Assembly: GCA_965208835.1 (NCBI GenBank)
Contig: OZ242358.1
Location: forward strand, 4,768,001 to 4,832,000
DNA: 64,000 bases
Direction: 5' to 3'
Origin: Candidatus Latescibacterota bacterium
GTDB taxonomy: Bacteria > Latescibacterota > UBA2968 > GCA-2709665
Shown here: positions 5,194 to 21,391 of the stretch, piece after piece
Layout of the letters: each line of letters starts with the position of its first letter
How positions within the stretch are numbered: the first letter of the stretch is position 1
Position numbers and translations under genes: made by a program
The notes under the pieces: model-generated
Told to the model about the DNA's origin: nothing
Databases searched by the model: none
What the model saw: only the letters and a program-made list of their open reading frames with translations

Positions 5194-5319
5194 ATGGATA
5201 CCGCTATGTGTCCGTTGATACCTGAATCCGGAGCAGGGGCTTTGCCGGATGCGTTCCGTATCTTGTCCTGCCCGCCCTGTTTATCCAAGTTGTCGAATGA
5301 GCCGGGATATGGAATTTCC

Positions 5320-5348
5320 TTGACACTCTCGATGTGATTGTTTAAAGT
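5320..5348 (+). promoter_or_regulatory. Sigma70-type promoter of the trp/aromatic operon
   Basis: TTGACA (5320-5325), 17-nt spacer, TAAAGT (5343-5348). Confidence 0.65.
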
Positions 5349-5426
5349 TAGATTGCTCCTGCCGGAGCGGTTTTTCTCGTCACCCGGTACGAAGTGGGCA
5401 GGACCGAGGACTGTGGAGGATCGAAC

Positions 5427-5534
5427 GTGACGGACCATGTCACAAACGGAATTTCCTGGCGTGGGTATTTTTATCGCTCCTACCGGTTGTATTACCGGGA
5501 GGCCCCGGAAGGTTGTGTCTGCCCACGCGAGTAA
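5427..5534 (+). CDS. Attenuator leader peptide, 35 aa: MTDHVTNGISWRGYFYRSYRLYYREAPEGCVCPRE
   Basis: GGAGG RBS upstream of GTG 5427, TAA at 5532-5534. Codons 11-23 include 1 Trp, 5 Tyr and 1 Phe. Lies between the promoter and the terminator upstream of trpE. Confidence 0.8.
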   Translation: MTDHVTNGISWRGYFYRSYRLYYREAPEGCVCPRE

Positions 5535-5568
5535 TCTGCTTGAAAAGTCGGAAACCGGGCCGTGGGCA
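5459..5568 (+). promoter_or_regulatory. Attenuator alternative pairings (1:2 and 2:3 antiterminator)
   Basis: Segment 2 TGCCCACGC (5520-5528) can pair with segment 1 GCGTGGGTA (5459-5467, on the Trp-Arg-Gly-Tyr codons) or with segment 3 CGTGGGCA (5561-5568, 5' arm of the terminator). Confidence 0.8.
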
Positions 5569-5589
5569 TCTGCTCACGGTTTTTTTTTT
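5560..5589 (+). terminator. Intrinsic attenuator terminator (3:4)
   Basis: CCGTGGGC-ATCT-GCTCACGG hairpin followed by 10 T, ending 15 nt before the trpE ATG. Confidence 0.88.
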
Positions 5590-5604
5590 GATCTGTTGGA
5601 ACTC

Positions 5605-7086
5605 ATGAACACACCCGATCTGGAAACGTTGAAGACGCTGGCCAGGGGACGGGGAATTGTTCCGATCTCACGGGAAATCCTCGGAGATACGGAAACCCCG
5701 GTGTCCGCCTATTTGAAACTGCGGCCAAGGAGTCCGTACAGCTTTCTATTCGAGAGCGTGGAAGGAGGGGAAAAGATCGGTCGTTATTCCTTCCTGGGCG
5801 TGGAGCCGTTTCTCGCGTTTCGCTCGTGGAAATCACGGATAGAGGTGGAGGACCTGAAGCGGGGCGGCGTGAGGGTATACGAGGGATCGCCCATTGCCGA
5901 ACTCAGGCGTCTGCTGGGAAAATACCGTTCGGCCCAGTTGGAGGGACTGCCCCGGTTTACCGGCGGAGCCGTCGGCTACGTGGCTTACGACGCAATCCGG
6001 CTGGTCGAGAACATCCCCGATCGAACGCACGACGACCACGGCCTGCCGGACGTCGAGTTACTCTTCTACGATACGCTCCTTGGCTTCGACAACGTACGGC
6101 AGAAAATCCATTTGATATCCAACGTACATACCTCGGGAGATATCGAGCGGAATTACCGGGAGGCGGAAGCGCGAGTCGATGCGCTGGAAGCGGCATTGCG
6201 CGGTCCGGTTCCCGTGAACGGTGTTCCGTCAGGAACACCGCGCAACCGGACGGGAGAAATCAGGTCGAACACGGAGCGGTCTGTCTTTCTGGACAAGGTG
6301 CGTCGCTGCAAGGAATATATCGTGGCTGGCGATATCTTTCAGGTTGTACTCTCTCAGCGCTTCGAGACGGAGATTACCGTGGGGTCCCTGGACATTTACC
6401 GGGCGCTTCGCACGGTGAATCCGTCGCCATATATGTTTCATCTGGACTTCAAGGACGTGCAACTCGTCGGCGCATCGCCGGAGCTGCTGGTGCGCGTCGA
6501 AAATGGCGTCGTGCAGGTGCGCCCCATTGCGGGCACACGCTGGAGGGGGGCTACGGAAGAGGAGGACTCCGCTCTCGCGACGGACCTGCTGGAGGATGAG
6601 AAGGAACGCGCGGAGCATATCATGCTTCTGGATCTGGGCCGTAACGACGTGGGTCGCGTATCGCGTTACGATACAGTACGTGTAACAGAACAGATGGCGA
6701 TTGAGCGCTATTCTCACGTTATGCATATTGTCTCGAACGTTCGGGGGCATCTCAAAGACGGCGTGGATGCACTGGATGCGCTGTATGCCTGTTATCCGGC
6801 AGGTACGGTTTCCGGCGCGCCCAAGATCCGCGCGATGGAGATTATCGACGAGCTGGAGCCGACCCGCCGCGGACCGTACTCGGGGGCGGTGGGCTATATC
6901 GACTTTTCGGGCAATATGGATACGTGCATCGCCATACGTACGATGGTTCTGCAGGGACGGAAAGCGTACGTCCAGGCCGGCGGAGGGATCGTGTTCGATT
7001 CCATACCGGAAAACGAGCATCAGGAAACGGTTAATAAGGCGAAGGCGCTGTTCAGGGCGGTGGAACTGGCGGAGGGTGCGGAGTAG
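5605..7086 (+). CDS. trpE: Anthranilate synthase component I
   Basis: Motifs FLFES, GRYSF, GDIFQVVLS, NPSPYM, PIAGT, EKERAEH, GTVSGAPKIRAM. Start moved to ATG 5605, downstream of the terminator. Confidence 0.95.
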   Translation: MNTPDLETLKTLARGRGIVPISREILGDTETPVSAYLKLRPRSPYSFLFESVEGGEKIGRYSFLGVEPFLAFRSWKSRIEVEDLKRGGVRVYEGSPIAELRRLLGKYRSAQLEGLPRFTGGAVGYVAYDAIRLVENIPDRTHDDHGLPDVELLFYDTLLGFDNVRQKIHLISNVHTSGDIERNYREAEARVDALEAALRGPVPVNGVPSGTPRNRTGEIRSNTERSVFLDKVRRCKEYIVAGDIFQVVLSQRFETEITVGSLDIYRALRTVNPSPYMFHLDFKDVQLVGASPELLVRVENGVVQVRPIAGTRWRGATEEEDSALATDLLEDEKERAEHIMLLDLGRNDVGRVSRYDTVRVTEQMAIERYSHVMHIVSNVRGHLKDGVDALDALYACYPAGTVSGAPKIRAMEIIDELEPTRRGPYSGAVGYIDFSGNMDTCIAIRTMVLQGRKAYVQAGGGIVFDSIPENEHQETVNKAKALFRAVELAEGAE

Positions 7087-7199
7087 TGCCGACAAATTAC
7101 GCCGCCGCCCCTCAGCAACCTTTTGAAAATGTCCATCCTGGCTGTGGCATGCAGCGGGACTATATCAACGGATTGTTTACGGTTTTGTCTGGTTGACCC

Positions 7200-7763
7200 A
7201 TGATCCTGGTAATCGACAATTACGACTCCTTCACGTACAATCTGGTTCAGTATCTGGGTGAGTTGGGCGCCCGGATGGAAGTGTTCAGGAACGATCAGAT
7301 CGAACTGGACCGGATTGACGCAACCCAACCCGAGAAGGTGGTGATTTCGCCCGGTCCCTGCACGCCGAACGAGGCGGGAATCTCCGTGGATCTGGTCCGG
7401 CGGTTTACCGGCCGGATTCCGATGCTGGGTGTCTGTCTCGGGCACCAGTGCATCGGACAGGCCTTTGGCGGCAAGGTCGTGAGGGCCCCGGCAATTCTCC
7501 ACGGGAAGGTGTCTGAGATTCATCACGACGGACGTACGATTTTCAGTGAAATGACTCAGCCCTTCATCGCAACGCGTTACCATTCGCTGATTGTCGAGCG
7601 GGAGAGCCTGCCGGACTGCCTTGAGGTGTCCGCGCAGACACACGACGGGATAATCATGGGTCTGCGGCACAGGAAATATCCGGTTGAGGGCGTGCAGTTT
7701 CATCCCGAATCCATATTGACGGCCGAGGGCAAAGTGCTGTTGAGGAATTTTCTTGAAGGCTGA
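7200..7763 (+). CDS. trpG: Anthranilate synthase component II (glutamine amidotransferase)
   Basis: [28 protein letters not shown]. Confidence 0.95.
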
Positions 7764-7768
7764 ATTAG

Positions 7769-7914
7769 CAGCCCGTTGAAAAAGCCCATCCGGACTACGG
7801 CCGGCCGTTGCGGTCGAAATACGGCGTTGTGCTCCCTCGCCGAATCCCAGGATGGGACTCGGTCGCGCGCCTTGTCTTCGGCCTCGCCTGCATAGCGACT
7901 TTATCAACGGACTG
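7769..7914 (+). mobile_element. MITE family B, full copy (146 bp)
   Basis: TIRs CAGCCCGTTGA / TCAACGGACTG with a perfect TTAG target duplication. Confidence 0.9.
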
Positions 7915-7967
7915 TTAGGGGACCGTACGCCGGTCCCGTTCTCTGCTTGCATGTCGGGGAGATGGCT

Positions 7968-8981
7968 ATGGCGATACAGGATGCGATTGCGAAACTGATT
8001 GAGGGGCAGGACCTGCCACGTGACCGGATGATCGGGACGATGAACCAGATCATGTCGGGAGAGGCCACGGACGCACAGATCGGCGCGTTCCTGGTCGCTT
8101 TGCGGGTCAAGGGCGAGACAGTCGAGGAGATCGCCGGCGCCGCGGAAGTGATGAGGGACAAGGCGACGCGGGTTGTAACACGGCACCCCACGGTAGTCGA
8201 TACATGCGGAACCGGAGGCGACGGATCGGGAACTTTCAATATCTCCACGGCGGCGGCGTTCGTGGTGGCCGGCGCGGGACTGTGTGTCGCCAAACATGGC
8301 AACCGCGCCGCATCCAGCCTCTGTGGAAGCGCCGACGTTCTGAAGGAGCTGGGGGTGAACATCGAAGCGTCACCCGGGACGATGGGGCGGTGTCTGGATG
8401 AGGCAGGCATCGGATTTCTGTTCGCTCCGGCATTGCACGGCGCCATGAAATATGCGATCGGACCCAGACGCGAGCTCGGTGCGCGCACGATTTTCAACGC
8501 TCTGGGGCCGCTGACCAATCCGGCAGGCGCAACCCGACACCTGATCGGGGTCTACAGTCGATCTCTGACCGACACGCTGGCGGAGGTCTTGCGAACATTG
8601 GCGTCGGAACGTGCGTTTGTGGTACACGGGCTGGACGGACTGGATGAGATCAGCACGACCGGGCCAACGCAGGTGAGCGAATTGAAGGACGGGACCGTGT
8701 CCACGTATGAGATCACGCCCGAGGACCTGGGAATCGCGAGGGCATCGGCAGACGATCTGGCCGGGGGCAACGCAGAGACCAATGCGGCGATCCTTCGCAG
8801 GGTGCTGAATGGCGAGCCCGGGCCACGGCTTGACATCGTTCTTTTGAACGCGGCAGCCGCAATCGTAGCAGGCGGTGCGGCGGGTGATCTGCCGGCGGCC
8901 ATGGAACTGGCCAGGGAAACCGTGGATTCCGGGCGGGCGGTGGATAAGCTGGAAGAGCTCAAGCTGGTTTCGGCGGGATAA
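7968..8981 (+). CDS. trpD: Anthranilate phosphoribosyltransferase
   Basis: DTCGTGGDG, FNIST, KHGNR, GSAD and DE motifs. Confidence 0.95.
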   Translation: MAIQDAIAKLIEGQDLPRDRMIGTMNQIMSGEATDAQIGAFLVALRVKGETVEEIAGAAEVMRDKATRVVTRHPTVVDTCGTGGDGSGTFNISTAAAFVVAGAGLCVAKHGNRAASSLCGSADVLKELGVNIEASPGTMGRCLDEAGIGFLFAPALHGAMKYAIGPRRELGARTIFNALGPLTNPAGATRHLIGVYSRSLTDTLAEVLRTLASERAFVVHGLDGLDEISTTGPTQVSELKDGTVSTYEITPEDLGIARASADDLAGGNAETNAAILRRVLNGEPGPRLDIVLLNAAAAIVAGGAAGDLPAAMELARETVDSGRAVDKLEELKLVSAG

Positions 8982-8982
8982 G

Positions 8983-9774
8983 ATGGCAACAATCCTGGAT
9001 GAGATCATCGCATACAAGCGACGCGTTGTGGCCGAGGCAAAACAACGGGTTTCGCACGAAGATATAAGGAAACAAGCGGATCGAGTTCGGAAACCGTGCT
9101 CCTTGATGGAGAGCCTGACCGCCGGGGAGGATATCGCGCTCATTACGGAAATAAAAAAGGCATCTCCGTCAAAAGGGGTGATCCGGGAGAATTTCGATCC
9201 GGTTGAAATCGGCCGGGCATACGAGAAAAACGGCGCTGCGGGAATTTCCGTGCTTACGGACGAGAAGTATTTTCAGGGCTCCATCGCCAGTCTGAAGGCC
9301 GTAAGCGAAGCCGTACAAATTCCGGTGCTCCGGAAAGACTTCGTGATTGACCCTTATCAGATTCACGAAGCCGGAACGATCGGTGCGTCGGCGGTTCTGC
9401 TCATTGTCTCGGCGCTCTCGCAACGTGAATTGGCAGAGATGCTCACAGTCTGCAGGGAGACACGATTGGACGCCCTCGTGGAAGTGCACACGAGGGAGGA
9501 AGCGAGCAGGGCTCTGGATGCCGGCGCAGCTCTTGTCGGGGTTAATAACCGCGACCTCAAGACGTTCGAAACCGACTTGCGAACCACGTTCGACCTGATT
9601 GAATATCTACCTGACGAACTCGTCGTGGTAAGCGAGAGCGGTATCGAGACCAGGGACCATGTCGTCCGGTTAAGGGATGCCGGCGTGAATGCGGTGCTGG
9701 TCGGGGAACATCTGATGCGCCATCCCGACGTCGGTCGGAAGCTGAAGGCGCTGCTGGGTGCGGAAGGCGGTTGA
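8983..9774 (+). CDS. trpC: Indole-3-glycerol phosphate synthase
   Basis: EIKKASPSKG, SVLTD..YF.G, LRKDF, NNRDL, SESGI. Confidence 0.95.
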   Translation: MATILDEIIAYKRRVVAEAKQRVSHEDIRKQADRVRKPCSLMESLTAGEDIALITEIKKASPSKGVIRENFDPVEIGRAYEKNGAAGISVLTDEKYFQGSIASLKAVSEAVQIPVLRKDFVIDPYQIHEAGTIGASAVLLIVSALSQRELAEMLTVCRETRLDALVEVHTREEASRALDAGAALVGVNNRDLKTFETDLRTTFDLIEYLPDELVVVSESGIETRDHVVRLRDAGVNAVLVGEHLMRHPDVGRKLKALLGAEGG

Positions 9775-10403
9775 CTCGACTCATGGTTTGTGTGAAAATT
9801 TGCGGAATTACGAATCCGGAAGACGCGCTTTTCGCGGCCGCACAGGGTGTGGACGCGCTGGGGTTCATCTTCTATGAGCCCAGCCCGCGTTACGTGGATC
9901 CGGAATGCGTGAGCGAGATCGTGTCGCAATTGCCGCCATTCGTGACGCCGGTAGGGGTCTTCGTGAACAAGGCCAGGGAGGAGATTCTGGAAATCGCGCG
10001 TTCGACCGGAATTCAGGCGGTACAGTTGCACGGCGACGAGACGCCGGCCGACTGTCTGGGATATCCGTTACCGGTTGTCCGGGCATTGCGGGTGAGCGAC
10101 GGATTCGACCCTGCTTCCCTGAACGACTTTCCGGTTGACACGTTTCTGCTGGATACGGCCAAAAAGGGATGGTACGGCGGCACTGGAGAGACCTTTGACT
10201 GGCGGGTTGCAAGGGCGGCGACCGCACACGGGCGGATCATCCTCTCCGGGGGAATGGATGCGTCAAACGTAGCGGATGCGGTCCGAATGGTGAATCCGTA
10301 CGCGGTAGACTGCGGCAGCGGCGTCGAGGCCGCGCCCGGCCGGAAGGACCACGACAGAATCAGGGGGTTTTTGCGGGCGGTCCGCTCCGTAGCAGTCCGT
10401 TGA
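9771..10403 (+). CDS. trpF: Phosphoribosylanthranilate isomerase
   Basis: KICGIT, SPR, QLHGDE, GGTGETFDW. The last codons and the stop lie inside a MITE B terminus. Confidence 0.95.
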   Translation: MTRLMVCVKICGITNPEDALFAAAQGVDALGFIFYEPSPRYVDPECVSEIVSQLPPFVTPVGVFVNKAREEILEIARSTGIQAVQLHGDETPADCLGYPLPVVRALRVSDGFDPASLNDFPVDTFLLDTAKKGWYGGTGETFDWRVARAATAHGRIILSGGMDASNVADAVRMVNPYAVDCGSGVEAAPGRKDHDRIRGFLRAVRSVAVR

Positions 10404-10552
10404 TAAAGTCGCTCTGCAGGCGAGGCCGAGCCATTGTGGCCGAAGACAAGGCGCGCGACCGAGTCCCATCCAGCGATTCGGCGAGGGAGCGCAACGCAGT
10501 ATTTCGACCGCAAGGGCCGGCCGTAGCCCGGATGGGCTTTTTCAACGGGCTG
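10393..10552 (-). mobile_element. MITE family B (160 bp, inverted, 14-bp internal extra)
   Basis: Reverse complement of the 7769 copy. GTAG duplication at 10389-10392 and 10553-10556. Confidence 0.9.
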
Positions 10553-10562
10553 GTAGACCACA

Positions 10563-11873
10563 GTGCGCGTGTCTGAACCAATATCGAGAAATGAACCGGA
10601 GTTCAAAACAGTGGACATCCAGAAAGATCTGAATTTCCGTGGTTACGTATTTCAGCAAACAGACCCCGACGGTTTCAGGGCTCGGCTCACGCAGGGGCCG
10701 ATCACACTCTATTCGGGGTTCGACCCCACGGCAGACAGCTTGCACGTTGGCAGCCTGATACCCATTCTGGGACTGAGGCGGTTTCAGCTGGCCGGACATC
10801 ATGCGATCGGGCTGATCGGGGGAGGTACGGGTTTGATCGGCGATCCGAGCGGCAGTAAGGAAGAACGTCCGTTGAATCCGCCCGAATTGATCGCATCATA
10901 TACCGGGAAACTGACAGACCAGCTGGCCAGGTTCCTGGATTTTGAGACGAAGACCAATCCCGCCCGGGTTGTCAGCAATCTGGGTTGGCTTTCGGAACTG
11001 AAGGCGATTGACTTCCTGAGGGACACGGGCAAGCACTTCTCCATGGGTTATATGCTGGCGAAAGAGTCCGTGGCTTCCCGGCTGGAGACCGGAATCTCGT
11101 TCACCGAATTCAGCTATATGGTCATTCAGGCCTATGATTTCATGGAGTTGTTTCGGGCACACGGATGTGAGCTCCAGATTGGCGGGAGCGATCAATGGGG
11201 TAACATAACGGCGGGAATCGAGCTGATCCGGCGCCGGCTCGGCGGGCAGGTCTATGGCCTGACGTTTCCGCTGCTGCTGAATGCCGACGGGTCCAAGTTC
11301 GGCAAGACGGCATCCGGTAACGTCTGGCTCGACCCGGGAAGGACAACCCCCTACCAGTTTTACCAGCATTGGATCAATACGGACGACCGTGACGTGGTGA
11401 AGTTCCTGAAGCTGTTTACCTTTCTACCCGAGAATGAAATCATCAATCTGGAAACGGAAGTGAACGAACACCCCGAAAAGCGAGAGGCGCAGCGGGTACT
11501 GGCAGAGGAAGTCACCACTTTCGTGCATGACAGATCCGCCACGGTGAGGGCGCGGCGGATTTCGGACGCGTTGTTCTATGGTAACCTGAAAGACCTGAGT
11601 ACACGAGAGATCGAAGAAGGGTTCCGCGACGTGCCGTCTCAGGCGCTCAATGGCGTTTCAGGTGTGGGTCTGGTGGATCTGCTGGTAGACTGCGGTATTT
11701 CATCTTCCATGCGCCAGGCGCGGGAAGATATCCGCTCCGGCGCGATCCATATCAATGGCCGTCGTTGCACCGATACGGGCATGATGCTTGAACCACCGGA
11801 CAGAATCGCAGGGAGATACCTGGTCGTGCGCCGGGGCAAACGCCGCTACTTTCTGGTGCGCTGGAACCTCTGA
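10563..11873 (+). CDS. tyrS: Tyrosine--tRNA ligase (start uncertain)
   Basis: YSGFDPTADSLHVG, QIGGSDQWGNI, KFGKT and a C-terminal S4-like domain. Confidence 0.95.
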   Translation: MRVSEPISRNEPEFKTVDIQKDLNFRGYVFQQTDPDGFRARLTQGPITLYSGFDPTADSLHVGSLIPILGLRRFQLAGHHAIGLIGGGTGLIGDPSGSKEERPLNPPELIASYTGKLTDQLARFLDFETKTNPARVVSNLGWLSELKAIDFLRDTGKHFSMGYMLAKESVASRLETGISFTEFSYMVIQAYDFMELFRAHGCELQIGGSDQWGNITAGIELIRRRLGGQVYGLTFPLLLNADGSKFGKTASGNVWLDPGRTTPYQFYQHWINTDDRDVVKFLKLFTFLPENEIINLETEVNEHPEKREAQRVLAEEVTTFVHDRSATVRARRISDALFYGNLKDLSTREIEEGFRDVPSQALNGVSGVGLVDLLVDCGISSSMRQAREDIRSGAIHINGRRCTDTGMMLEPPDRIAGRYLVVRRGKRRYFLVRWNL

Positions 11874-12164
11874 CGGGCGGTTGCCGGTCCACCGGCATGT
11901 ATCGGAGCGCAAACCAGGATATGAATAATCGAAACCCAGCATGATAAACCTCAATCCGAAAAAGACAGCAACGCGGCGACGCGATAAAACCCTCCGAAAC
12001 GGGGCAATATCGACCTATAGAATGACGTTTTTTCCCTTCACGCCCAGTGACCTGGTGTATCCTGGTAATCCGCCGTTTAATCGCTTTTATTTACAAGCAC
12101 ATATTCGAATTAACGTCCCCGAAGACTTACGAATCAAGGTTAACAACAGGAGAGGATTCCTTCC

Positions 12165-13142
12165 ATGAAAGCACCCTGGATTACCTATCGGCCGGAATTG
12201 AAAGTACTTGATTGTACGATTCGAGACGGCGGATTGATGAACGATCACCAGTTCACCGATGATTTCGTGAAGGCGGTCTATGAAACCTGCGTCGCCGCCG
12301 GCGTCGACTATATGGAAATTGGGTACCGGAACTCCAAGGAGATTTTCCCCAAAGACCAATTCGGAGCTTTCCGGCACAGCGACGAAGAGGACATCCGTAA
12401 GATAACGGGCGACCACGACCCTGAAACCACCGGCCTGAAGCTCGCCATTATGGCGGATGCGGGCAAGAGCGACTGGGCGGAAGACATCCTGCCGGCCAGC
12501 GAGAGCGTGGTCAGCATGGTACGCGTGGCCTGTTATGTCGAGCAGATTCCCGAGACCGTTGAAATGCTCTGCGACGCCCACGAGAAAGGGTATGAAACCA
12601 GTTGCAACATTATGGCCATTTCAACCGTACAGGAGGTTGAGATCGACCAGGCGCTGGAGGTGCTCATCCAGACGCCGGTCGGCACAATATGTGTCGTCGA
12701 CAGCTTCGGGGCATTGTATCGCGAGCAGGTGGACATGCTCATCCGAAAATATATGGATGCTGTAAGCAAAACGGGAAAGGAAGTCGGCATTCACGCTCAC
12801 AACAACCAGCAACTGGCATTCGCCAATACCATCGAAGCGCTGATTCTCGGCGCAAACCGCGTTGACGCCACGGTGGACGGGCTTGGCCGCGGCGCCGGGA
12901 ATTGCCCTCTGGAACTGCTGCTGGGCTTCCTGCGCAATCCGAAGTTCAGGATTCGACCCGTCTACAAGCTGCTGGAAGACCACTTCGTCAAGTTGCGTGA
13001 GGAATTGACGTGGGGGGCCCTTGTACCGTACAACATTACAGGGCAGCACAACCAGCATCCCCGCTCGGCGATGGCGCTTCTGGACGGGGACGAACGCAAC
13101 CGCTATCTGGCATTCTACGATCAGGTGATGAGGGATATATAG
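12165..13142 (+). CDS. DRE-TIM metallolyase, 4-hydroxy-2-oxovalerate-aldolase-like
   Basis: [42 protein letters not shown]. Confidence 0.85.
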
Positions 13143-14347
13143 TGCTCAACAGAGATGAAACCGCAAGGGCATGGCCTGACTCCGGGGGGCACTTCGGACC
13201 CTACGGCGGGCGCTATGTGCCGGAAACGTTGATGCCGTTACTGGAAGACCTGGAGGCGGCCTACCGCGACGCAAAGGACCGTCCGGATTTTCATGAAGAA
13301 CTGGACGGATATCTCCGGGAATTCGTAGGAAGGCCGACGTCACTCTATTTCGCACAGCGACTGACCCAAGAACTGGGCGGAGCCAGGATCTATCTGAAGC
13401 GGGAGGACCTCGCCCACACCGGCGCGCACAAAATAAACAACACGATGGGGCAGATTCTGCTTGCCAGACGCATGGGCAAGACGCGGATCATCGCTGAAAC
13501 GGGGGCGGGGCAGCACGGCGTGGCCACGGCAACCGTCGCGGCGATGTTCGGCCTGGAATGCGAGATCTACATGGGCACGGAAGACATGGACCGGCAGGCG
13601 TTGAATGTGTTTCGAATGCGGCTCCTCGGTGCGAAAGTGACCGGCGTGGACTCGGGAAGCAGGACGCTCAAAGACGCGATCAACGAGGCAATCCGGGACT
13701 GGGTGACGAATGTGGAGGATACGTTTTATATCTTTGGATCCGTCCTGGGGCCTCACCCGTATCCGATGATCGTACGCGACTTTCAGCGGGTGATCGGGGT
13801 GGAGACGCGCGCGCAGATCCTGCAGGCCGAAGGTCGGTTGCCGGACCGTCTGATCGCATGCGTGGGCGGCGGCAGCAATTCGATGGGGCTGTTTCATGCG
13901 TTTCTGGACGACACGGACGTGCGGATGGTCGGCGTCGAAGCCGGAGGCCATGGCATTGCCTCGGGCGACCACGCTGCGCGGTTTCAGGGAGGAGATCTGG
14001 GCGTACTGCACGGGGCCAGGATTTACCTCCTTCAGGACGAGGACGGTCAGATTGCACTGACCCATTCGGTATCGGCGGGCCTGGACTATTCCGGCGTGGG
14101 CCCCGAACACTGCCTTCTGCGGGATGAGGGTCGGATCGAGTATGCGTATGCAACTGACGACGAGGCCCTGAAGGGGTTCCGGCTGTTGAGTCGCACGGAG
14201 GGCATCATTCCCGCACTGGAAAGCGCGCATGCGATCGCGTACGTGTCGAAAGCGGCGCCCGAAATGGACAGGAATGCCGTGATCGTGGCGAATCTGTCCG
14301 GACGCGGCGACAAAGATGTACAGCAGGCGGCGAAGTACCTGGACTAA
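13142..14347 (+). CDS. trpB: Tryptophan synthase beta chain
   Basis: [41 protein letters not shown]. The GTG overlaps the upstream TAG. Confidence 0.96.
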
Positions 14348-14400
14348 ACGGTAGTACACGTTTCGTTATTGAACCGGAATCGAGGATTGGAGTTGCCCGG

Positions 14401-15213
14401 ATGACAAGGATCGGTAAACGGTTCGAAGCGTTGAGGAGAGCGGGAAAGACCGGATTTGTCGCCTACATAACGGCCGGAGATCCGGATCTGGAAACCACCC
14501 GACGACTGGTGCCGGAGCTGGAGCGGCGCGGGGTGGATATCCTCGAGTTGGGCGTACCGTTCTCCGATCCGCTGGCGGACGGGCCCGAGATCCAGGCGGC
14601 CTCGCAGCGGGCGCTGAGGCATGGGGTGTCGCTGGGCGACGTTCTGGACCTGGTGGCGGACCTGCGGCTGGAGTCCGAGATACCTATCGTTCTGTTTACG
14701 TATTTCAATCCGATGCACCGTTTCGGTCTCCAACGGCTCGTCGACAGAGCCGCCGATGCGGGGGTGGACGGCATTCTGGCGCTGGATCTTCCGCCGGAAG
14801 AAGCGGGCGAGTACAAGGGTCTGATGGAAGAGCGGGGATTGGATACGATTTTTCTGATCGCGCCTACCAGCGGTGAGGATCGCATTCGGCGAATCGCGTC
14901 TTGCACCAGCGGATTTGTATATTACGTGTCGCGCACGGGCGTGACCGGGGAACGGGACAGACTGGAGGAAACGCTTGGAGACAGGGTAGCGGCCATCCGG
15001 AGACATACCTCGCAACCCGTTGCGGTTGGATTCGGAATTTCGACGCCGGAACAGTCCGGAGAGGTTGCAGGCTATGCGGATGCGGTCGTCGTCGGCAGCG
15101 CCATCGTGCGTCGAATTGCCCAACGGCAGACCGACCCGGACCTCGTTGTTCACATCGGGGCTTTTGTCGAAGAATTGGTGCAACCGTTGAAGGGAGCATT
15201 CGATGGATCTTGA
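14401..15213 (+). CDS. trpA: Tryptophan synthase alpha chain
   Basis: ELGVPFSDPLADGP.IQ, GVTG, GFGI, VGSA. Confidence 0.96.
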   Translation: MTRIGKRFEALRRAGKTGFVAYITAGDPDLETTRRLVPELERRGVDILELGVPFSDPLADGPEIQAASQRALRHGVSLGDVLDLVADLRLESEIPIVLFTYFNPMHRFGLQRLVDRAADAGVDGILALDLPPEEAGEYKGLMEERGLDTIFLIAPTSGEDRIRRIASCTSGFVYYVSRTGVTGERDRLEETLGDRVAAIRRHTSQPVAVGFGISTPEQSGEVAGYADAVVVGSAIVRRIAQRQTDPDLVVHIGAFVEELVQPLKGAFDGS

Positions 15214-15472
15214 AGACTGGCGTAAGGAAATCGACGTGCTGGACCGGGAACTGCTGACGCTTCTGAATCGACGGGCCGAATGCGCCATTGAAATTGGCAG
15301 GATCAAACAGGCAATCGAGCAACCGATCTTCGTGCCGGAACGGGAGATGTCGATCCTGAACCGAATCCTTGAGTTGAATGAGGGGCCCCTGGACGCCGAA
15401 GCCGTGCGACGGATCTTTCAACAGATCATCGATGAGTCCAGGCGCCTCATGCAGAAGAATCAGGGAAGTTAA
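15203..15472 (+). CDS. Chorismate mutase (AroQ class, monofunctional)
   Basis: R.EID.LD...L.LLN.R...A..IG..K...PERE pattern in an 89-aa protein. Confidence 0.9.
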   Translation: MDLEDWRKEIDVLDRELLTLLNRRAECAIEIGRIKQAIEQPIFVPEREMSILNRILELNEGPLDAEAVRRIFQQIIDESRRLMQKNQGS

Positions 15473-15564
15473 ACGGGTGCGAACCCTTCTGAACCTTAGC
15501 TCGAGATTGGTCGGGACGTTTCGTCACGTTTGAAGACCGAGATTTGTCACGGAGCCCGCAGCGC

Positions 15565-16593
15565 ATGGCATTCACGAAAAACATGAAGATACCCACGCCG
15601 GAAGCCGTTCTGGAGAAGATGCCGCTTCCGAAGAATCTGAAAGAAATAAAGGAGCAGCGGGATGCGGAAATCGGCGACATCTTTTCGCGCAGGAGCCATA
15701 AGTTTCTCCTTGTGATCGGCCCCTGCTCCGCACACAATGAAGACGCCGTATGTGAATACGTCTCGCGGCTGGCGAAACTGCAGGAGGCCGTCCGGGAAAC
15801 GCTGATTCTGGTGCCCCGGCTCTATACCAACAAACCCCGGACGACCGGCGAGGGATACAAGGGTATGGGACATCAGCCGGACCCGCGAAAGGCGCCGGAC
15901 ATGTCCGAAGGCATTTACGCGGTCCGTCAGATGCACATCCGGGCGGTGCGGGAATCCCACCTGACTGCGGCCGACGAAATGCTCTATCCTGGCAATCTAC
16001 CCTACGTCGATGACCTGCTGAGCTATATAGCCGTGGGTGCCCGGTCGGTAGAAAACCAACAACACCGATTGACCTGCAGCGGCGTTGACGTACCCGTTGG
16101 AATGAAAAACCCGACGGGAGGAGATCTTTCGGTTATGCTGAACGCGATTCATGCCTCCCAGATCCCGCACGTCTTCATCTATAACGGCTGGGAGGTACGC
16201 ACCGACGGCAATCCAATGACGCACGCCGTACTCCGCGGCGCCGTGGACGTAACCGGGCGCAGCATGCCGAACTACCATTTCGAGGACCTCATGTACGCGG
16301 CGGAACTGTATCGGCAGCGGCCGCTTGCCAACGCCGCGATCGTCGTGGATACGAATCACAATAACTCGGGCAAGCAGTTCAGTGAACAGCCGCGGATCGG
16401 GTTGGAAGTGATACGCAGCCGGCAGAATTCGGCGTTCCTGAACGACATGATCCGCGGATTGATGGTGGAGAGTTATCTGGTTGAGGGAGCGCAAGACGTC
16501 AATGACGGCGTGTACGGCAAATCCATTACCGATCCATGCCTGGGGTGGGAAGATACCGAGGCGTTCGTAAAGGAACTGGCCGAGGGGATATGA
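15565..16593 (+). CDS. aroG: DAHP synthase (type I-alpha-like)
   Basis: IGPCS, KPRT, VGARS, GMKNPT, MVES, KSITDPCLGW. Confidence 0.9.
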   Translation: MAFTKNMKIPTPEAVLEKMPLPKNLKEIKEQRDAEIGDIFSRRSHKFLLVIGPCSAHNEDAVCEYVSRLAKLQEAVRETLILVPRLYTNKPRTTGEGYKGMGHQPDPRKAPDMSEGIYAVRQMHIRAVRESHLTAADEMLYPGNLPYVDDLLSYIAVGARSVENQQHRLTCSGVDVPVGMKNPTGGDLSVMLNAIHASQIPHVFIYNGWEVRTDGNPMTHAVLRGAVDVTGRSMPNYHFEDLMYAAELYRQRPLANAAIVVDTNHNNSGKQFSEQPRIGLEVIRSRQNSAFLNDMIRGLMVESYLVEGAQDVNDGVYGKSITDPCLGWEDTEAFVKELAEGI

Positions 16594-16671
16594 TTGCGAA
16601 CGGGATCGGAAGACAGGAACGGACCCGAACGACCCGCGGGCGCTTTCGCCTCCGCCTCCAAGGATGACCGC

Positions 16672-17784
16672 ATGGCGAACGACCCTCCGTTTGCGCGTGA
16701 GACGATTGCAATAGTTGGTGTCGGGCTGATTGGCGGATCTCTTGGTGTGGCGCTCAAGGGACTGGGCATCGGACGACGTATCGTTGGCATCAGCAGGCAG
16801 GAGACCCTGGATGCAGCCGTCGGGCTGGATGTTATCGATGCGGGCTATCGCTATGAGGACCTCGAAACCGGGATTCGGGATGCGGCGCTGGTTTTCCTGT
16901 GCACTCCCATCGTACGTATTCTGGATCTGCTGCCTGAGGTGCTCGGAGCGGCGCGGCAGGATACGGTCGTGACCGATGTAGGCAGCACCAAACACGCGAT
17001 TGTTTCCGCGGCGGCGGCCCATCATCGGGATGACGTGCACTTTGTGGGCGGGCACCCGATGGCCGGATCCGAACATCGAGGGGTGGGCGCGGCGGATCCC
17101 TTCCTGTTTCAGAATGCGATCTATGTCTTGACGCCGTCGCCGGACACGCCCGGTTTCGTGGTCGAAAAGCTCGCTCGCCTTGTAAGGGCGTTCGGGGCCA
17201 GGCCGATGAGGATGACGCCTCAGGAACACGACAGGGCGGCGGCGGCGGTAAGTCACCTGCCGCAGATGATGGCCACGAGCCTGGTGTCCATGATTGGAAG
17301 GATGGCGGAAGACGACGGATTGCCGATTCGAATGGCCGCGGGGGGGTTTCGGGACCTGACCCGCATCGCTTCCAGCCCTTTTGGGATGTGGCGAGATATC
17401 TGCCGTACAAACGCGACGCCGATCCGCGAGATGATCGATCTGTATATTGAGTCGCTTTCGGCAATTCGCGGGAATGTGGACCACGACCGCCTGGAGCAGA
17501 CATTCACCTATGCGAATCGGGTACGGGGGCAGATCCCGAAGGACTCCAAGGGATTCCTGCATCCACTGCACGAAATTCTCCTCCTGGCGGAGGACAGGCC
17601 GGGTGTGATCGCCCACGTCGCCAGGAAGCTTGCCGGTGAGAGCATTAATATAAACGACATTGAGGTGCTGAATGTGCGGGAGGGAGAAGGCGGCACCATT
17701 CGAATGGGGTTCGATTCCCGTCCCTGCGCGGAACGGGCCGTTGACGTATTGGCGAAGGCGGGCTACAGCGTGAGATTGAGATAG
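16672..17784 (+). CDS. tyrA: Prephenate/arogenate dehydrogenase with C-terminal ACT domain
   Basis: GVGLIGGS, DVGSTK, GGHPMAG, HD....SHLP, GGFRDLTRIA, and the ACT motif DRPG.I. Confidence 0.92.
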   Translation: MANDPPFARETIAIVGVGLIGGSLGVALKGLGIGRRIVGISRQETLDAAVGLDVIDAGYRYEDLETGIRDAALVFLCTPIVRILDLLPEVLGAARQDTVVTDVGSTKHAIVSAAAAHHRDDVHFVGGHPMAGSEHRGVGAADPFLFQNAIYVLTPSPDTPGFVVEKLARLVRAFGARPMRMTPQEHDRAAAAVSHLPQMMATSLVSMIGRMAEDDGLPIRMAAGGFRDLTRIASSPFGMWRDICRTNATPIREMIDLYIESLSAIRGNVDHDRLEQTFTYANRVRGQIPKDSKGFLHPLHEILLLAEDRPGVIAHVARKLAGESININDIEVLNVREGEGGTIRMGFDSRPCAERAVDVLAKAGYSVRLR

Positions 17785-17846
17785 AGATTGAACCGGAAAG
17801 ATCGCTTTCCCTCCATTGGCGACCGCATTATAAAGAAGGCCTGGTT

Positions 17847-19145
17847 TTGGAACTCACGAAGTCGGGAATCTTCGAAGATAACATCAAACCATCGCCCGGG
17901 CTCAAGGGGGTTTCCGACCTCCCGGGCGATGTCAGTATATCGATCATCGCCCTTGCGCTCTCGTCCGCGGCGAATGGAATTACCAGGATTCGCAGGTGCT
18001 CGCGAAGCCGTGAAGTCCACCGTACTTGCGAGTTGCTGTCGGAAGTCGGGATTGCGGTAGCCTGGGACGGTGAGACCGCAACGGTAACCGGCGGCCAATT
18101 CCGGGCGCCGGAAGGCGTGCTGAACGTGGACGGGTCCCTTGTTCTGTTTTCCTGTCTGGCGGGATTGCTGTCGAATGCCCCTTTTGTAACGAGACTTTCC
18201 GGAATTCACGCCGATGCCGGCGTCAACCGGGTCTCTGAAGCGCTGCGACCGCTGGACGCCCACCTGGACCTTTCGATTAAGGACGGGATATCGGCCCGTA
18301 TCGGGGGGAAGAGGTTAAAGCCTGGATCCTGCCGCGTCGGACGTCCCGACCTGGCGGTGAAGTGCGGGGTGCTGATGGCCGGGTTGGGTGTGGACGGTCC
18401 GGTTGAGCTGCTGCAGGACACCGGAGGAGATGACGATCTGGAAGTGTTGCTGCGGGCGGCCGGATGCCGGCTGAAAAAGGGCCGGATCAGGGGCGCCGGA
18501 GGTTACCGGTTGTCGCTGGAAGGACCCGTACGGCTCCGCGCCGTTACCCATGAGTTGCCGGGTAGTTCGGACGCCGGTCTGTTTCTTGTGCTGGCCGCGG
18601 CGATGTTGGAACAGTCTGATTTGACGGTAACCCATTTCGGAACGGACTCGAGAAGCCGAAGGATCATGGACGTGCTGCGCCGGATGAACGTAGCCCTGGA
18701 TGTGGAGCCATTCCGGACGGATTCCGGTTTCCCCGCTCGAAGCGTCCGGATCATGGGGTCCGACTTGCGTGGCATAAAGATCGCCGGCGCGAACGCGCGG
18801 TTCTTGCGGGACGTGCTCCCGCTCCTGGCGGTCGCCGGCGCCGTTTCCCGGGGTGAGACCATAATCCGGGATGCGGAGGCGTTGAGGGAGGGTCCGGTCG
18901 ACTGTATCTCGGTTTTGGTAGAATGCCTCAGGAAGTTACAGATTGAAGTCGGAGAGATGCCGGACGGACTGGTTGTGAAGGGAGGGCAACCGCAGGGCGC
19001 CGAACTGGATGCCGGCGGTGACGCCCGCGTGTCTATGGCGCTCACGCTGGCGGCGCTGGCCAGCGAAGGGGAAACACTCGTCAGGAACCCCGGGCCCGTG
19101 GATCGGGCGATGATGGATCGGCTGGCGACGGTACTGGAAGCGTAA
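17847..19145 (+). CDS. EPSP synthase (AroA)-like protein with degenerate active site
   Basis: Full-length AroA-fold pattern between tyrA and aroE. Motifs read PGDVSISIIA, REGPVDC and DARVSM instead of PGDKSISHR, RVKE.DR and DHR.AM. Confidence 0.8.
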   Translation: MELTKSGIFEDNIKPSPGLKGVSDLPGDVSISIIALALSSAANGITRIRRCSRSREVHRTCELLSEVGIAVAWDGETATVTGGQFRAPEGVLNVDGSLVLFSCLAGLLSNAPFVTRLSGIHADAGVNRVSEALRPLDAHLDLSIKDGISARIGGKRLKPGSCRVGRPDLAVKCGVLMAGLGVDGPVELLQDTGGDDDLEVLLRAAGCRLKKGRIRGAGGYRLSLEGPVRLRAVTHELPGSSDAGLFLVLAAAMLEQSDLTVTHFGTDSRSRRIMDVLRRMNVALDVEPFRTDSGFPARSVRIMGSDLRGIKIAGANARFLRDVLPLLAVAGAVSRGETIIRDAEALREGPVDCISVLVECLRKLQIEVGEMPDGLVVKGGQPQGAELDAGGDARVSMALTLAALASEGETLVRNPGPVDRAMMDRLATVLEA

Positions 19146-19156
19146 TCATTCAGGTA

Positions 19157-19194
19157 CCCGCGCTGTCTGCAGCGTCCGCTGCAGACAGCGCGGG
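19157..19194. repeat. Perfect 18-bp inverted repeat
   Basis: CCCGCGCTGTCTGCAGCG-TC-CGCTGCAGACAGCGCGGG, with no U-tract. Confidence 0.85.
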
Positions 19195-19220
19195 ACAATC
19201 TTCGGTACGAGGAGAGCCTT

Positions 19221-19361
19221 ATGAGACTGGTTGTCAGGTTATTCCTTCTGGCGTTGCTGGTGTTCCTGGGAGGCGTGGTCTTCATCAAGTACACATACAA
19301 CTGTTCGTGGAAAGAGAGTTTCGCCATCGCCGACCAGTTTGTGTCGGACCTGACCCGTTAA
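19221..19361 (+). CDS. Small single-TM protein, 46 aa (below ORF-track cutoff)
   Basis: GAGGAG RBS, then MRLVVRLFLLALLVFLGGVVFIKYTYNCSWKESFAIADQFVSDLTR*. Confidence 0.65.
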   Translation: MRLVVRLFLLALLVFLGGVVFIKYTYNCSWKESFAIADQFVSDLTR

Positions 19362-19507
19362 CAGTCCGTTGATAAAGTCGCTCTGCAGGCGAGGCCGAAG
19401 ACAAGGCGCGCGATCGAGTCGACTCGGAGGATTCGTCGAGGGAGCGCAACGCGGTATTTCGACCGCAAGGGCCGGCCGTAGCCAGGATGGGCTTTTTCGA
19501 CGGGCTG
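19362..19507 (-). mobile_element. MITE family B (146 bp, inverted)
   Basis: TTAA duplication at 19358-19361 and 19508-19511. Confidence 0.9.
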
Positions 19508-19558
19508 TTAAGGAACTCCTGCCGGCAGGACGCAACAGCAGGGTGAGGGGAGTCTGTT

Positions 19559-20425
19559 TTGGGTATTGTCTCAACCACGCGATTGCTGGGGGTGATAGGC
19601 GATCCCATCGCCCATTCGTTATCTCCGGACATGCACAATGCGGCCATTGACGATCTCGAAATAGACTATTGTTACGTCGCTTTTCACGTATTGCCGGATG
19701 GGATTGAATCGGCGCTCGACGGTATGCGCGCTTTGCAGATTCGGGGATTGAACGTTACCCTTCCGCACAAGTCGGCGGTGATGGCGCACCTGGACCGGAT
19801 TTCGAAAGAAGCACTGGCCGTGGGCGCGGTGAACACGATTTCTCTCAAAGATGGCGAACTTGTCGGGCAGAATACCGACGTGTACGGGTTGGCCACCGCT
19901 CTGGAGCGCACCGCTGGCCTCGGCGTGTTGCCCGAGCATTGCGTGATTCTCGGTGCGGGAGGCGTCGCGCGGGCGGCCGTCTACGCACTGGCGACGCGGA
20001 AAGAGGTGAAGCGGGTGAGCATTCTCAATCGAACTGTCGGCCGGGCGCAGGCGCTTGCGCGGGATATGCAACGGATAACGGGAAAATCGATCGACGCGGG
20101 TGATCTGACGAAGGGCACTCAGATGAGCCGGTTCTCGGATGCCGGCCTTGTCGTGAACGGAACGTCGTTGGGGATGGTTCCGGACGTGCAGCGGACGCCC
20201 CTCGCGGATACACGCGCGGTCCACCCGCAACTGGTGCTCTACGACACGGTTTTCAATCCGCTGGATACGCTCCTGATGCGTCAGTTCCGATCCGCCGGAG
20301 CGCCGGCGTATGGAGGCCTGGATATGCTTGTGCACCAGGGCGCGCGTTCGTTTGCCATCTGGACGGGTATCGAGCCGCCCGTCGACGTGATGAAGCAGGC
20401 GATAATCGGCCGGTTTCGGGCGTAG
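19559..20425 (+). CDS. aroE: Shikimate dehydrogenase
   Basis: G.PIAHSLSP.MHN, NVTLPHK, GAVNT, NTD, GAGG, NRT, GLDMLVHQG. Confidence 0.93.
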   Translation: MGIVSTTRLLGVIGDPIAHSLSPDMHNAAIDDLEIDYCYVAFHVLPDGIESALDGMRALQIRGLNVTLPHKSAVMAHLDRISKEALAVGAVNTISLKDGELVGQNTDVYGLATALERTAGLGVLPEHCVILGAGGVARAAVYALATRKEVKRVSILNRTVGRAQALARDMQRITGKSIDAGDLTKGTQMSRFSDAGLVVNGTSLGMVPDVQRTPLADTRAVHPQLVLYDTVFNPLDTLLMRQFRSAGAPAYGGLDMLVHQGARSFAIWTGIEPPVDVMKQAIIGRFRA

Positions 20426-20427
20426 CG

Positions 20428-21171
20428 GTGGCGAGTTCCGACCCTCAGGAACGCGATGCCAGGCGGACCTTCGTTCGTCAGATGTTCGACGGTATTGCCG
20501 GCACGTACGATCTGCTGAACCACCTGTTGAGCGCCGGCGTGGACATTCTCTGGCGGCGCTGGACAGTCGACGCACTGGAATTGAAGGCGGACTGGCGGAT
20601 CCTGGACCTTGCGACAGGAACGGCCGATCTGGGTCTCGAAGCCGCTGCGCGCGACCCGGGGGTGCGGGTTGTGGGTGCGGACCTTTCCCTGCCGATGCTT
20701 CGGCTTGGAAACAAGAAGCAGAAGAAGGGAGCCGGCCGCATGTTTCTGCTTTGCGGAGACGCACAGCGGCTGCCGTTTCCCGATGCGCGGTTTCACGCCG
20801 TGACCATTGGCTTCGGAGTACGGAATTTTTCGGACCTGAACGGCGGGCTTCGCGAGGTCTTGCGCGTCCTGCGCCCGGGAGGCCGGCTGGCGGTTCTGGA
20901 ATTTTCCCGGCCCAGAGCCTTTCTGTTGAGCAGGGTTTACCTCATTTACTTCAAATACATCCTTCCCGGAATCGGTCGGCTGGTTTCACGGAACCCTCTG
21001 GCGTACCGGTATCTCTATGAGTCCGTGATGGGATTTCCGGAAGGAGAAGCATTTCGAATGCGTTTGACGCAGACGGGGTTTCAGGATGCGGTGGAACGCC
21101 GGTTGACCCTCGGCATTGCCACGCTCTACCTGGCGTCAAAACCTTCGAATCGGGGAGACGGAAGAGGGTAG
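20428..21171 (+). CDS. ubiE: Ubiquinone/menaquinone biosynthesis C-methyltransferase
   Basis: MFD.IA..YD.LNH.LS.G.D..WR, LDLATGTAD, FGVRN, LEFS.P. Confidence 0.9.
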   Translation: MASSDPQERDARRTFVRQMFDGIAGTYDLLNHLLSAGVDILWRRWTVDALELKADWRILDLATGTADLGLEAAARDPGVRVVGADLSLPMLRLGNKKQKKGAGRMFLLCGDAQRLPFPDARFHAVTIGFGVRNFSDLNGGLREVLRVLRPGGRLAVLEFSRPRAFLLSRVYLIYFKYILPGIGRLVSRNPLAYRYLYESVMGFPEGEAFRMRLTQTGFQDAVERRLTLGIATLYLASKPSNRGDGRG

Positions 21172-21345
21172 AAGAAATGCGGGTAGACGGGAGAGGGTAG
21201 ACGGTAGACCAATAGCGGGTAGACGGGAGCCGGTAGACGGTAGAAGAAATACTTGCCCGGTATGTCATTCCTCATTGCCTTCGGCACGAACAGAATCCTC
21301 ACGAGGCAGGCAATCTCTCCCCTCTCCCGTCTTACGTCTAACCGC
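21152..21345. repeat. Short-unit repeat tract (GGTAGAC/GGGAGAG units) with inverted distal arm
   Basis: Repeated GGTAGACGG units at 21152-21248 and complementary CTCTCCCCTCTCCCGTCTTACGTCT at ~21315-21340. 21 nt are identical to 43316-43336. Confidence 0.65.
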
Positions 21346-21391
21346 CTTTTGCTGACGGCTGATAGCTTTTTGGGGCGCGAGGTCCTGCTAT

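Follow-up and report, generated by a model that had tools for sequence, protein, structure and literature searches.

A probable ribosome-dependent attenuator with a mixed Trp/Tyr/Phe leader peptide at the head of an aromatic supraoperon in a Latescibacterota genome

Which amino acids are read by the leader region that precedes trpE in Candidatus Latescibacterota bacterium (assembly GCA_965208835.1), and by what mechanism? The region lies in a 64,000-nucleotide stretch of contig OZ242358.1 (positions 4,768,001 to 4,832,000 of the forward strand), which is referred to here as the window and whose own numbering is used unless stated otherwise. A first-pass annotation of the sequence had proposed a complete attenuator between positions 5320 and 5605, with a leader peptide that is dominated by Tyr codons, contains a single Trp codon and could report shortage of all three aromatic amino acids. 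According to the analysis described here, the element is quite probably a ribosome-dependent (leader-peptide) transcription attenuator at the head of an aromatic supraoperon of about 19 kb, and it very probably senses at least tryptophan. Tyrosine is favoured, with less assurance, as a second real input, phenylalanine is a possible but tentative further input, and arginine is a doubtful one.

The individual elements named in the first-pass annotation were all found in the sequence where it had placed them. A predicted sigma-70-type promoter on the forward strand (5320-5348) consists of TTGACA (5320-5325), a 17-nucleotide spacer and TAAAGT (5343-5348). In a promoter-pattern scan this site reached 10 of 12 matches and ranked first among four promoter-like sites in 2.8 kb, compared with 1.1 expected; a promoter match is present in all 15 genomes of the genus, and the same-genus loci with enough upstream sequence displayed have the form TTGAC[AT]-N17-TAA[ATC]GT. 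The 5' untranslated region (UTR; 5355-5405) comprises a stem-loop at approximately 5357-5392 followed by AGUGGGCAGGACC (5393-5405). The Shine-Dalgarno (SD) sequence GGAGG (5415-5419) is located 7 nucleotides ahead of a GTG start codon at 5427, from which a leader open reading frame (ORF; 5427-5534) of 35 codons extends to the stop codon TAA at 5532-5534 and specifies the peptide MTDHVTNGISWRGYFYRSYRLYYREAPEGCVCPRE. The regulatory tract W11-R24, WRGYFYRSYRLYYR (5457-5498), includes one Trp, five Tyr, one Phe and four Arg codons, and the whole leader contains five Tyr and five Arg codons. Aromatic residues occupy 7 of 35 positions in the leader and 7 of 14 in the tract (binomial P 0.007 and 1e-5, respectively), as against 6.6% in the operon's own proteins. 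The mechanical trpE ORF (5437-7086) overruns the leader in a different frame, and the ORF track thus hides it, as had been remarked before.

The pairing segments of a classical attenuator can be assigned within this region. Segment 1, GCGUGGGUA (DNA GCGTGGGTA; 5459-5467), is the 5' strand of the anti-antiterminator and runs across the Trp-Arg-Gly-Tyr codons, while segment 2, UGCCCACGC (DNA TGCCCACGC; 5520-5528), covers codons Cys32-Pro33-Arg34, with the leader stop codon at 5532 only 4 nucleotides past it. The dual pairing that had been postulated for segment 2 holds: it forms nine pairs with segment 1, one of them G-U (1:2 helix), or eight pairs with CGTGGGCA (5561-5568), giving the 8-bp antiterminator UGCCCACG:CGUGGGCA (2:3 helix). 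The core of segment 3, CGUGGGCA at 5561-5568, is part of the 5' arm of a predicted intrinsic terminator (5557-5589) with 5' arm at 5557-5567, loop AUCU at 5568-5571, 3' arm (segment 4) at 5572-5582 and a run of ten T residues at 5580-5589. The terminator stem (DNA GGGCCGTGGGC-ATCT-GCTCACGGTTT, RNA GGGCCGUGGGC-AUCU-GCUCACGGUUU) has 11 pairs, six of which are G-C. In minimum free energy folds, an apical hairpin CUCCUACCGG...CCGGGAGG (5477-5502) is formed within the 1:2 loop and contains Tyr codons 19, 22 and 23, flanked by Arg CGG codons; its counterpart in genus g6 carries UAU repeats in the loop. The first structural gene is trpE (5605-7086), which encodes component I of anthranilate synthase according to matches to Chorismate_bind and Anth_synt_I_N and begins with an ATG 16 nucleotides past the T-run.

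Conservation of the trpE upstream region in relatives, which the first-pass annotation had put forward as a check, was analyzed on TrpE loci from closely related genomes. In total, 41 genomes were searched and 30 loci with TrpE proteins of 70-99% identity were fetched, one of which (L020) is cut at a contig end. A leader ORF and a terminator precede trpE in each of the 29 evaluable loci, one of which (L022) was assessed by eye. A TrpE search over many phyla delivered distant loci only (60% identity or less) and no close relatives, and its results were not used. The fetched trpE leader loci served to build a covariance model, R1, and in a sample of 151 genomes of the phylum this model found matches in 48. 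These matches are confined to two families, f1 (18 of 18 genomes) and f2 (29 of 30), with none in the 102 genomes from 12 other families, and each is the single match in its genome and always adjoins trpE. The sole f2 genome without a match is 82% complete and has trpE at a contig start. After more distant genera had been added, one strong R1 match was obtained in each of 51 loci. Accordingly, the comparison confirms at the sequence level that the module is real: a full set of predicted attenuator elements recurs upstream of trpE beyond chance, and the aromatic codons are kept.

All 51 leaders are open over 25-40 codons and contain one or two Trp, two to six Tyr, one to five Phe and three to ten Arg codons, and an SD-like site stands ahead of the chosen start in all 28 relatives for which candidate starts were listed. 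Aromatic residues make up 29% and Arg 16% of the mean leader content, while the corresponding values for the proteins of the operon are 6.6% and 8.4%; Tyr is enriched about 5-fold and Phe about 3-fold over background. Between genera the peptide sequence and the positions of the aromatic residues drift and the codon mix stays, as illustrated by the peptides FFWRSFRYYRYYR, YWRGYFNRSFRYY, HFWYFWRRFDGRYYYY, LWYWRRFDGRFYYY and FYWHFGFRRFGYY. Within the genus (14 genomes), codons 2-10 and 26-30 vary freely. Codons 11-24 show six distinct synonymous and eight non-synonymous variants, four of the latter remaining aromatic (three Tyr to Phe, one Trp to Tyr). Such a pattern is as expected under selection on codon identity.

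The first-pass annotation had further called for covarying stems, and here the outcome is divided between the helices. In the alignment of the 51 terminators, 11 pairs are recognized, five of them with compensatory changes, and 98.6% of the cells are paired, a value reached in none of 500 shuffles. The loop-side extension of the antiterminator also covaries with the terminator loop, reading GUAU:AUAC in genus g3, GUUU:AAAC in g6 and GUGU:AUAU in g10, and a contiguous 2:3 helix of 6-11 bp can be formed in all 51 elements. The antiterminator core UG[CU]CC:GGGCA, by contrast, is invariant, with UG[CU]CC present in 51 of 51 elements. Only a four-pair core of the 1:2 helix is common to the relatives, namely GGCG:UGCC, or UGGCG:UGCC together with the Trp codon, which occurs in all 29 sequences of the closer set and is 97-100% paired in the 51. 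Beyond this core the 1:2 helix is lineage-specific; in every case its 5' strand includes the first Trp codon, and its loop the aromatic tract.

A model of the regulation can be derived from this arrangement, in which we infer the transcription start, the stalling and the relevant amino acids. Transcription would begin at the TTGACA/TAAAGT promoter, and a ribosome would translate the 35-codon leader. If charged tRNAs are plentiful, the ribosome would proceed to the final codons or to the stop codon at 5532 and cover segment 2, the terminator would fold and transcription would stop before trpE. If charged tRNA-Trp or tRNA-Tyr is scarce (probably also tRNA-Phe and possibly tRNA-Arg), the ribosome would stall within W11-R24 and hold segment 1 or the 1:2 loop open; segment 2 could then pair with 5561-5568 before the 3' arm of the terminator is made, and RNA polymerase would read on. 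Without translation, segment 2 would be held by segment 1, and in this genome also by a copy of the GUGGGCA motif in the 5' UTR, which would make termination the default.

The predicted switch was modelled by masking a 28-nucleotide ribosome footprint at each codon, with nascent transcripts cut ahead of the terminator 3' arm. When the first Trp codon occupies the ribosomal A site, these nascent models give the 2:3 helix a probability of at least 0.5 for 27 of the 29 sequences; at the last five codons and the stop codon, the value is below 0.5 for all 29. In full-length equilibrium models of the RNA of this genome starting at 5406, the probability of the terminator drops from 0.97 without a ribosome to 0.07-0.16 with stalls at Y14-F15, and stalls at W11-S18 in general lower it, with a minimum of 0.07. 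The 1:2 helix (9 bp) is present in the full-length fold; in nascent models without a ribosome it is often beaten by the 2:3 helix. Since a ribosome stalled at W11, Y14, F15 or Y16 masks segment 1, codons for all three aromatic amino acids are placed to act.

Several results weigh against this reading. The invariance of the antiterminator core means that the core itself yields no covariation. The energy of the 2:3 duplex falls below a z-score of -2 relative to the shuffled leader in just five of the 51 elements, and the folding energy of the whole leader is not significant (z -1.42, 17 of 200 shuffles being as good). Folding under a mask, as suggested in the first-pass annotation, reproduced the switch in the nascent models, but for most relatives not at equilibrium, where 23 of the 29 sequences favour the terminator irrespective of the position of the ribosome. 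When the full 5' UTR is included for the 15 genomes of the genus, equilibrium folding yields the textbook switch in three; the antiterminator is favoured whatever the ribosome does in six, and it is disfavoured at most positions in another six, including this genome. In the equilibrium models of this genome, AGUGGGCAGGACC (5393-5405), a third GUGGGCA copy, pairs with segment 2 at probabilities of 0.5-1.0 and captures it even when a stalled ribosome occupies the aromatic tract. Such a capture is also seen in the genome G011, not in most of the genus. Moreover, as the terminator wins at equilibrium in most sequences, the switch would need to operate kinetically, which is the accepted view of trp attenuation in Escherichia coli. 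Folding alone gives no proof of a switch. Five sequencing runs from two studies contain this DNA, and none of the listed runs is an RNA data set.

With regard to its distribution, the third GUGGGCA copy is shared by this genome and G011, and the other genomes of the genus that were displayed have CCGGCAGG or another sequence at this place. Judging from the models, the copy may serve as an additional lock by which basal read-through is reduced; alternatively, its capture of segment 2 may be an artefact that arises from the transcription start chosen for the models.

The competing explanation that survives best accepts attenuation and restricts it to tryptophan: just the one or two Trp codons would be regulatory, and the Tyr, Phe and Arg codons would reflect RNA structure, with UAU and UAC in loops and CGN in stems, or simply descent. 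We regard it as rather unlikely. It agrees with the presence of at least one Trp codon in all 51 leaders and with the position of the first of these codons within segment 1, where it is part of the conserved 1:2 core UGGCG:UGCC. The Arg CGN codons do pair with one another to form apical hairpins. The distal codons Y19, Y22 and Y23 are located in the 52-nucleotide 1:2 loop, outside the window in which equilibrium models lower termination, and the model lets the 1:2 helix re-form behind a ribosome stalled there; a ribosome at these codons would presumably keep the helix open by steric hindrance. An excess of Tyr over Trp is in itself weak evidence, since the background frequency of Tyr is four times that of Trp. 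In addition, according to the review PMC11802643, the supply of tyrosine had no effect on the aroR attenuator of Corynebacterium glutamicum, which is a precedent against Tyr sensing.

A structural role alone is difficult to reconcile with the enrichment of Tyr and Phe in the 51 leaders, which is retained despite the positional drift, and with Y14, F15 and Y16, which lie inside the effective window. Within the genus, the Tyr codons change synonymously or to Phe. Furthermore, tandem Trp codons are used in the leaders of a sister family and in the trpS leader of this genome, and were therefore available to the lineage and are not used at trpE. On these grounds the reading of a multi-amino-acid leader is preferred, and the proposal that a Tyr-dominated leader reports on more than tryptophan is favoured by the comparison; the leader of this genome has a single Phe codon.

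The comparison with the sister family, f3, adds a contrast in gene content. All 12 f3 clusters examined have the order trpEGDC-trpS-chorismate mutase-tyrA-aroA-aroE-argS-aroK-aroB. In the families f1 and f2, all eight clusters examined contain tyrS, trpS is absent from the clusters of all seven relatives, and trpF-tyrS-(HMGL)-trpBA occurs in the place of trpS, along with genes for 3-deoxy-D-arabino-heptulosonate 7-phosphate (DAHP) synthase and ubiE. The leaders of f3 were found by eye and by script, 17 being extracted from 19 loci; R1, when run on two f3 loci, gave no match. Trp exceeds Tyr in 15 of the 17 leaders and equals it in two, and the means per 25 codons are 3.0 for Trp, 1.0 for Tyr and 0.9 for Phe. 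Examples are RRWWWRFWSY, which includes the run WWWRFW, RRYWWRFRY and RDWWRFWYY. This contrast between Trp-rich leaders with trpS and Tyr-rich leaders with tyrS is a single clade split and no statistical correlation, which limits its weight in favour of Tyr sensing.

Regarding f3 itself, a TrpE match (E 1e-100 or better) was detected in 19 of 71 sampled genomes, and in none of 26 from genus g18 and none of eight from g17, complete single-contig genomes included. The gene content thus suggests widespread tryptophan auxotrophy in this family.

The same contrast can be drawn between two loci of the present genome. Its trpS gene is detached from the cluster (G000:C1 367219-368208) and has a predicted leader-peptide attenuator of its own at about 368,210-368,700 on the minus strand (loci L302 and L314). 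A TTGACA-type promoter and an SD sequence precede the leader peptide MAARDGHSGSWWWYDFNRTGRLTAC, in which three Trp codons stand in tandem, and a G+C-rich hairpin followed by a run of eight T residues lies after it. A crude pattern of a WW or WWW leader with a T-run was found at trpS in 17 of 18 f1 loci and in none of 12 f2 loci, one of which has only about 60 nucleotides of upstream sequence. To judge from these sequences, the lineage would place tandem-Trp leaders before a Trp-specific gene and a Tyr-rich mixed leader before tyrS, tyrA and the common pathway. The pheA gene is 75 kb away, and neither a leader nor a terminator was found in its 137-nucleotide upstream gap. A T-box-like leader with the conserved AAUAGGGUGGUACCGCG box was detected at G000:C1:1847104-1847399 on the plus strand (L313, 205-500) with 80.5 bits and an E value of 1e-16, the gathering score being 93. 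It is the single match of this kind in the genome and lies directly upstream of an archaeal-type pheS gene (NF003210, 523 bits), so that this genome seems to monitor the charging of tRNA-Phe through a T-box at pheS.

Two further explanations depart from attenuation by codon reading altogether, and both are very improbable. According to the first, the leader peptide itself is functional, either as a TnaC-like nascent arrest peptide or as a secreted or bioactive micropeptide. The sequence is indeed well conserved in the genus, and a Pro residue is found one to four residues ahead of the stop codon in most leaders. Between genera, however, composition is kept and sequence is not, and the RNA motif UGCCC, whose translation is CP, MP or LP depending on the lineage, accounts for the Cys-Pro pair. 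In two of the three g10 leaders the reading frame ends early, at a TAG where g6 has AAG, and UGCCC is kept past that stop codon; it is thus the RNA, and not a peptide motif, that constrains the conserved Cys-Pro. Neither a signal peptide nor a partner gene was seen, and trpE and a terminator accompany the element in every case.

An untranslated leader RNA, that is a riboswitch or a protein- or tRNA-binding element acting on the same terminator/antiterminator pair, is scarcely credible either: the terminator and the mutually exclusive helix would exist with or without translation, and a T-box-like element does occur elsewhere in the genome, but the locus has no Rfam match even at E values up to 10, no gene for the RNA-binding regulator TRAP was found, the frame is open with an SD sequence and a start codon in all 51 elements, and the aromatic tract varies in a codon-like manner. 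As regards specific families, the Rfam model Trp_leader (RF00513) had no match at its gathering score in the window and none at E values up to 10 in 5250-5650, the T-box leader (RF00230) had no match in 5250-5650, and the Rfam searches at the locus returned only chance-level look-alikes of terminators. A TRAP-controlled leader was rejected on the ground that PF02081 (mtrB) was not found in the genome, which is 97.8% complete, and was found in the Bacillus subtilis control.

The role of the Arg codons is still speculative, as it was in the first-pass annotation, although no result speaks against a link to argS. The argS gene ends the cluster in f1, f2 and f3, and the leaders of these families contain 16-18% Arg, but Arg CGN codons also build the G+C-rich stems of the leaders. 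A broader reading, which is offered tentatively and appears unlikely at present, would treat the leader as a sensor of tRNA charging with the four inputs Trp, Tyr, Phe and Arg, whose codon mix was retuned as the content of the operon changed: Trp-dominated with trpS, Tyr-dominated with tyrS and DAHP synthase, and Arg-rich with argS. If it were true, one attenuator would autoregulate two tRNA synthetases together with all three aromatic branches, and the composition of a leader could predict which genes are co-transcribed with it.

The genes that the attenuator would control form a co-directional run of about 19 kb on the plus strand (5605-24814), from trpE to aroB, and the trp, aro, tyrA, tyrS and argS genes that had been named in it before were verified by Pfam and NCBIfam matches. 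Following trpE, the starts of trpG (7200), trpD (7947), trpC (8875) and trpF (9771) precede tyrS (start 10563; TIGR00234, 387 bits), a gene for an HMGL-like aldolase (12165-13142) between tyrS and trpB, and trpB (about 13140) and trpA (14401). The genes for chorismate mutase (15203), DAHP synthase (15544), prephenate dehydrogenase (tyrA, 16594), 5-enolpyruvylshikimate-3-phosphate synthase (aroA, 17847) and shikimate dehydrogenase (aroE, 19559) come next, followed by ubiE (20428), argS (21392), shikimate kinase (aroK, 23092) and 3-dehydroquinate synthase (aroB, 23705), with which the run ends at 24814. The tyrS gene thus lies about 5 kb and argS about 16 kb into the run. The gene order is kept in seven relatives, and no convincing internal terminators were found across the run (14 candidates versus 13.4 expected); we take the whole run to be probably co-transcribed. 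The gene upstream of the leader encodes an unrelated short-chain dehydrogenase, and a TonB gene nearby implies a Gram-negative cell plan.

Some features of the gene run vary among the relatives. The HMGL-like aldolase, with 4-hydroxy-2-oxovalerate aldolase as its best, sub-threshold NCBIfam match, was found at 88-95% identity in the g1 and g6 clusters that were examined; the examined clusters of g2, g3, g4 and g9 lack it. In the g2 genome G015 (locus L266, 4850-6040), the tyrS gene at the same operon slot is only 31% identical to that of this genome and yet a full match to TIGR00234 (381 bits), so that one type of tyrS has replaced another at this position of the operon. A repeat of about 150 nucleotides with terminal inverted repeats (CAGTCCGTTGA.AAAG ... 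CTTTTTCAACGGGCTG), possibly a miniature inverted-repeat transposable element, occurs in the window in copies that are 82-92% identical, at 7765-7917 (minus strand), 10390-10562 (plus), 19359-19510 (plus), 34787-34889 (minus) and 52361-52512 (minus). Three of the copies lie in operon gaps, namely trpG/trpD, trpF/tyrS and aroA/aroE, and in some relatives a copy is found between the attenuator and trpE. In the genera g2-g5 and g8-g11 (loci L015-L022 and L272-L280), a second promoter-like site, conserved across genera, is located between the terminator and trpE, for example CTTGACAAAT..CTGAAAAA..GC.TATTAGA, or TTGACAA-N17-TATTAT followed by GAATTCTTACAGTTAT. From its sequence it looks like an additional, possibly repressor-controlled, promoter of trpE. 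The site is absent from this genome, in which trpE begins 16 nucleotides past the T-run.

The data suggest that these bacteria couple the supply of tryptophan and tyrosine, possibly together with that of phenylalanine and arginine, in one decision. Most known cases of leader-peptide attenuation, a textbook mechanism, come from Proteobacteria and Actinobacteria, and the predicted use of this mechanism over a whole aromatic pathway in an uncultured candidate phylum would mean that it extends further than had been assumed. Two sister clades, and two loci of one genome, differ in the synthetase gene and in the dominant codon of the leader and thus provide a natural experiment on leader tuning. As gene callers hide the leader inside trpE, R1 combined with the peptide pattern would also let annotators mark it.

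Among the known systems, trpL of E. coli is the closest in architecture: it likewise comprises a short ORF before trpE, alternative 1:2, 2:3 and 3:4 helices such as are predicted here, a stop codon placed to cover segment 2 and a U-run terminator, and it too has an Arg codon right after Trp. It differs in having two tandem Trp codons in place of one Trp, five Tyr, one Phe and four to five Arg codons and in belonging to a different phylum, and the run of about 19 kb described here also includes genes of the common pathway, of the Tyr branch and of two tRNA synthetases. Multivalent attenuators are known from enterobacteria, where the ilvGMEDA leader contains Ile, Leu and Val codons and the thr leader Thr and Ile codons. 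As in the present case, one peptide carries codons for several amino acids of a shared operon; these leaders sense branched-chain amino acids or Thr and Ile, and an aromatic version (plus possibly Arg) with synthetase genes in the same operon is not known to be among them. In the aromatic supraoperon of B. subtilis the trp genes are likewise part of a larger aro/tyrA run, which is controlled by binding of TRAP to (G/U)AG repeats, whereas the gene order is different and no TRAP gene was found in the present genome.

The closest known parallel to a mixture of aromatic codons is found in C. glutamicum, whose aroR leader precedes aroF and contains Phe-Tyr-Phe codons; only Phe limitation acted on it, according to the account of the work of Neshat et al. 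(2014) in the review PMC11802643. The aroR leader is thus, like the one described here, an attenuator of an aromatic-pathway operon with mixed aromatic codons; as described there, it has no Trp codon and controls DAHP synthase, in contrast to a leader with Trp, Tyr and Phe codons that heads trp genes. Attenuators of synthetase genes are represented by pheM-pheST of E. coli, as described in PMC11802643, and by trpS and leuS of Streptomyces, as described in PMC1262725. Their leader codons are cognate to the downstream synthetase, whose expression thus rises when charging is poor, a relation that would recur here as tyrS/Tyr and argS/Arg and for which the trpS gene of this genome with its WWW leader is a direct parallel; in those cases the gene lies directly behind the leader, whereas tyrS and argS are 5 kb and 16 kb away inside a biosynthetic operon. 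Full-text literature searches yielded neither a description of a Trp/Tyr/Phe leader ahead of trpE nor one of attenuation in Latescibacterota. The mechanism itself is not new, since multivalent attenuation and the mixed-aromatic aroR leader were already known. What is new and unusual is the probable multi-amino-acid aromatic form of a textbook mechanism, together with an instructive comparative contrast between lineages.

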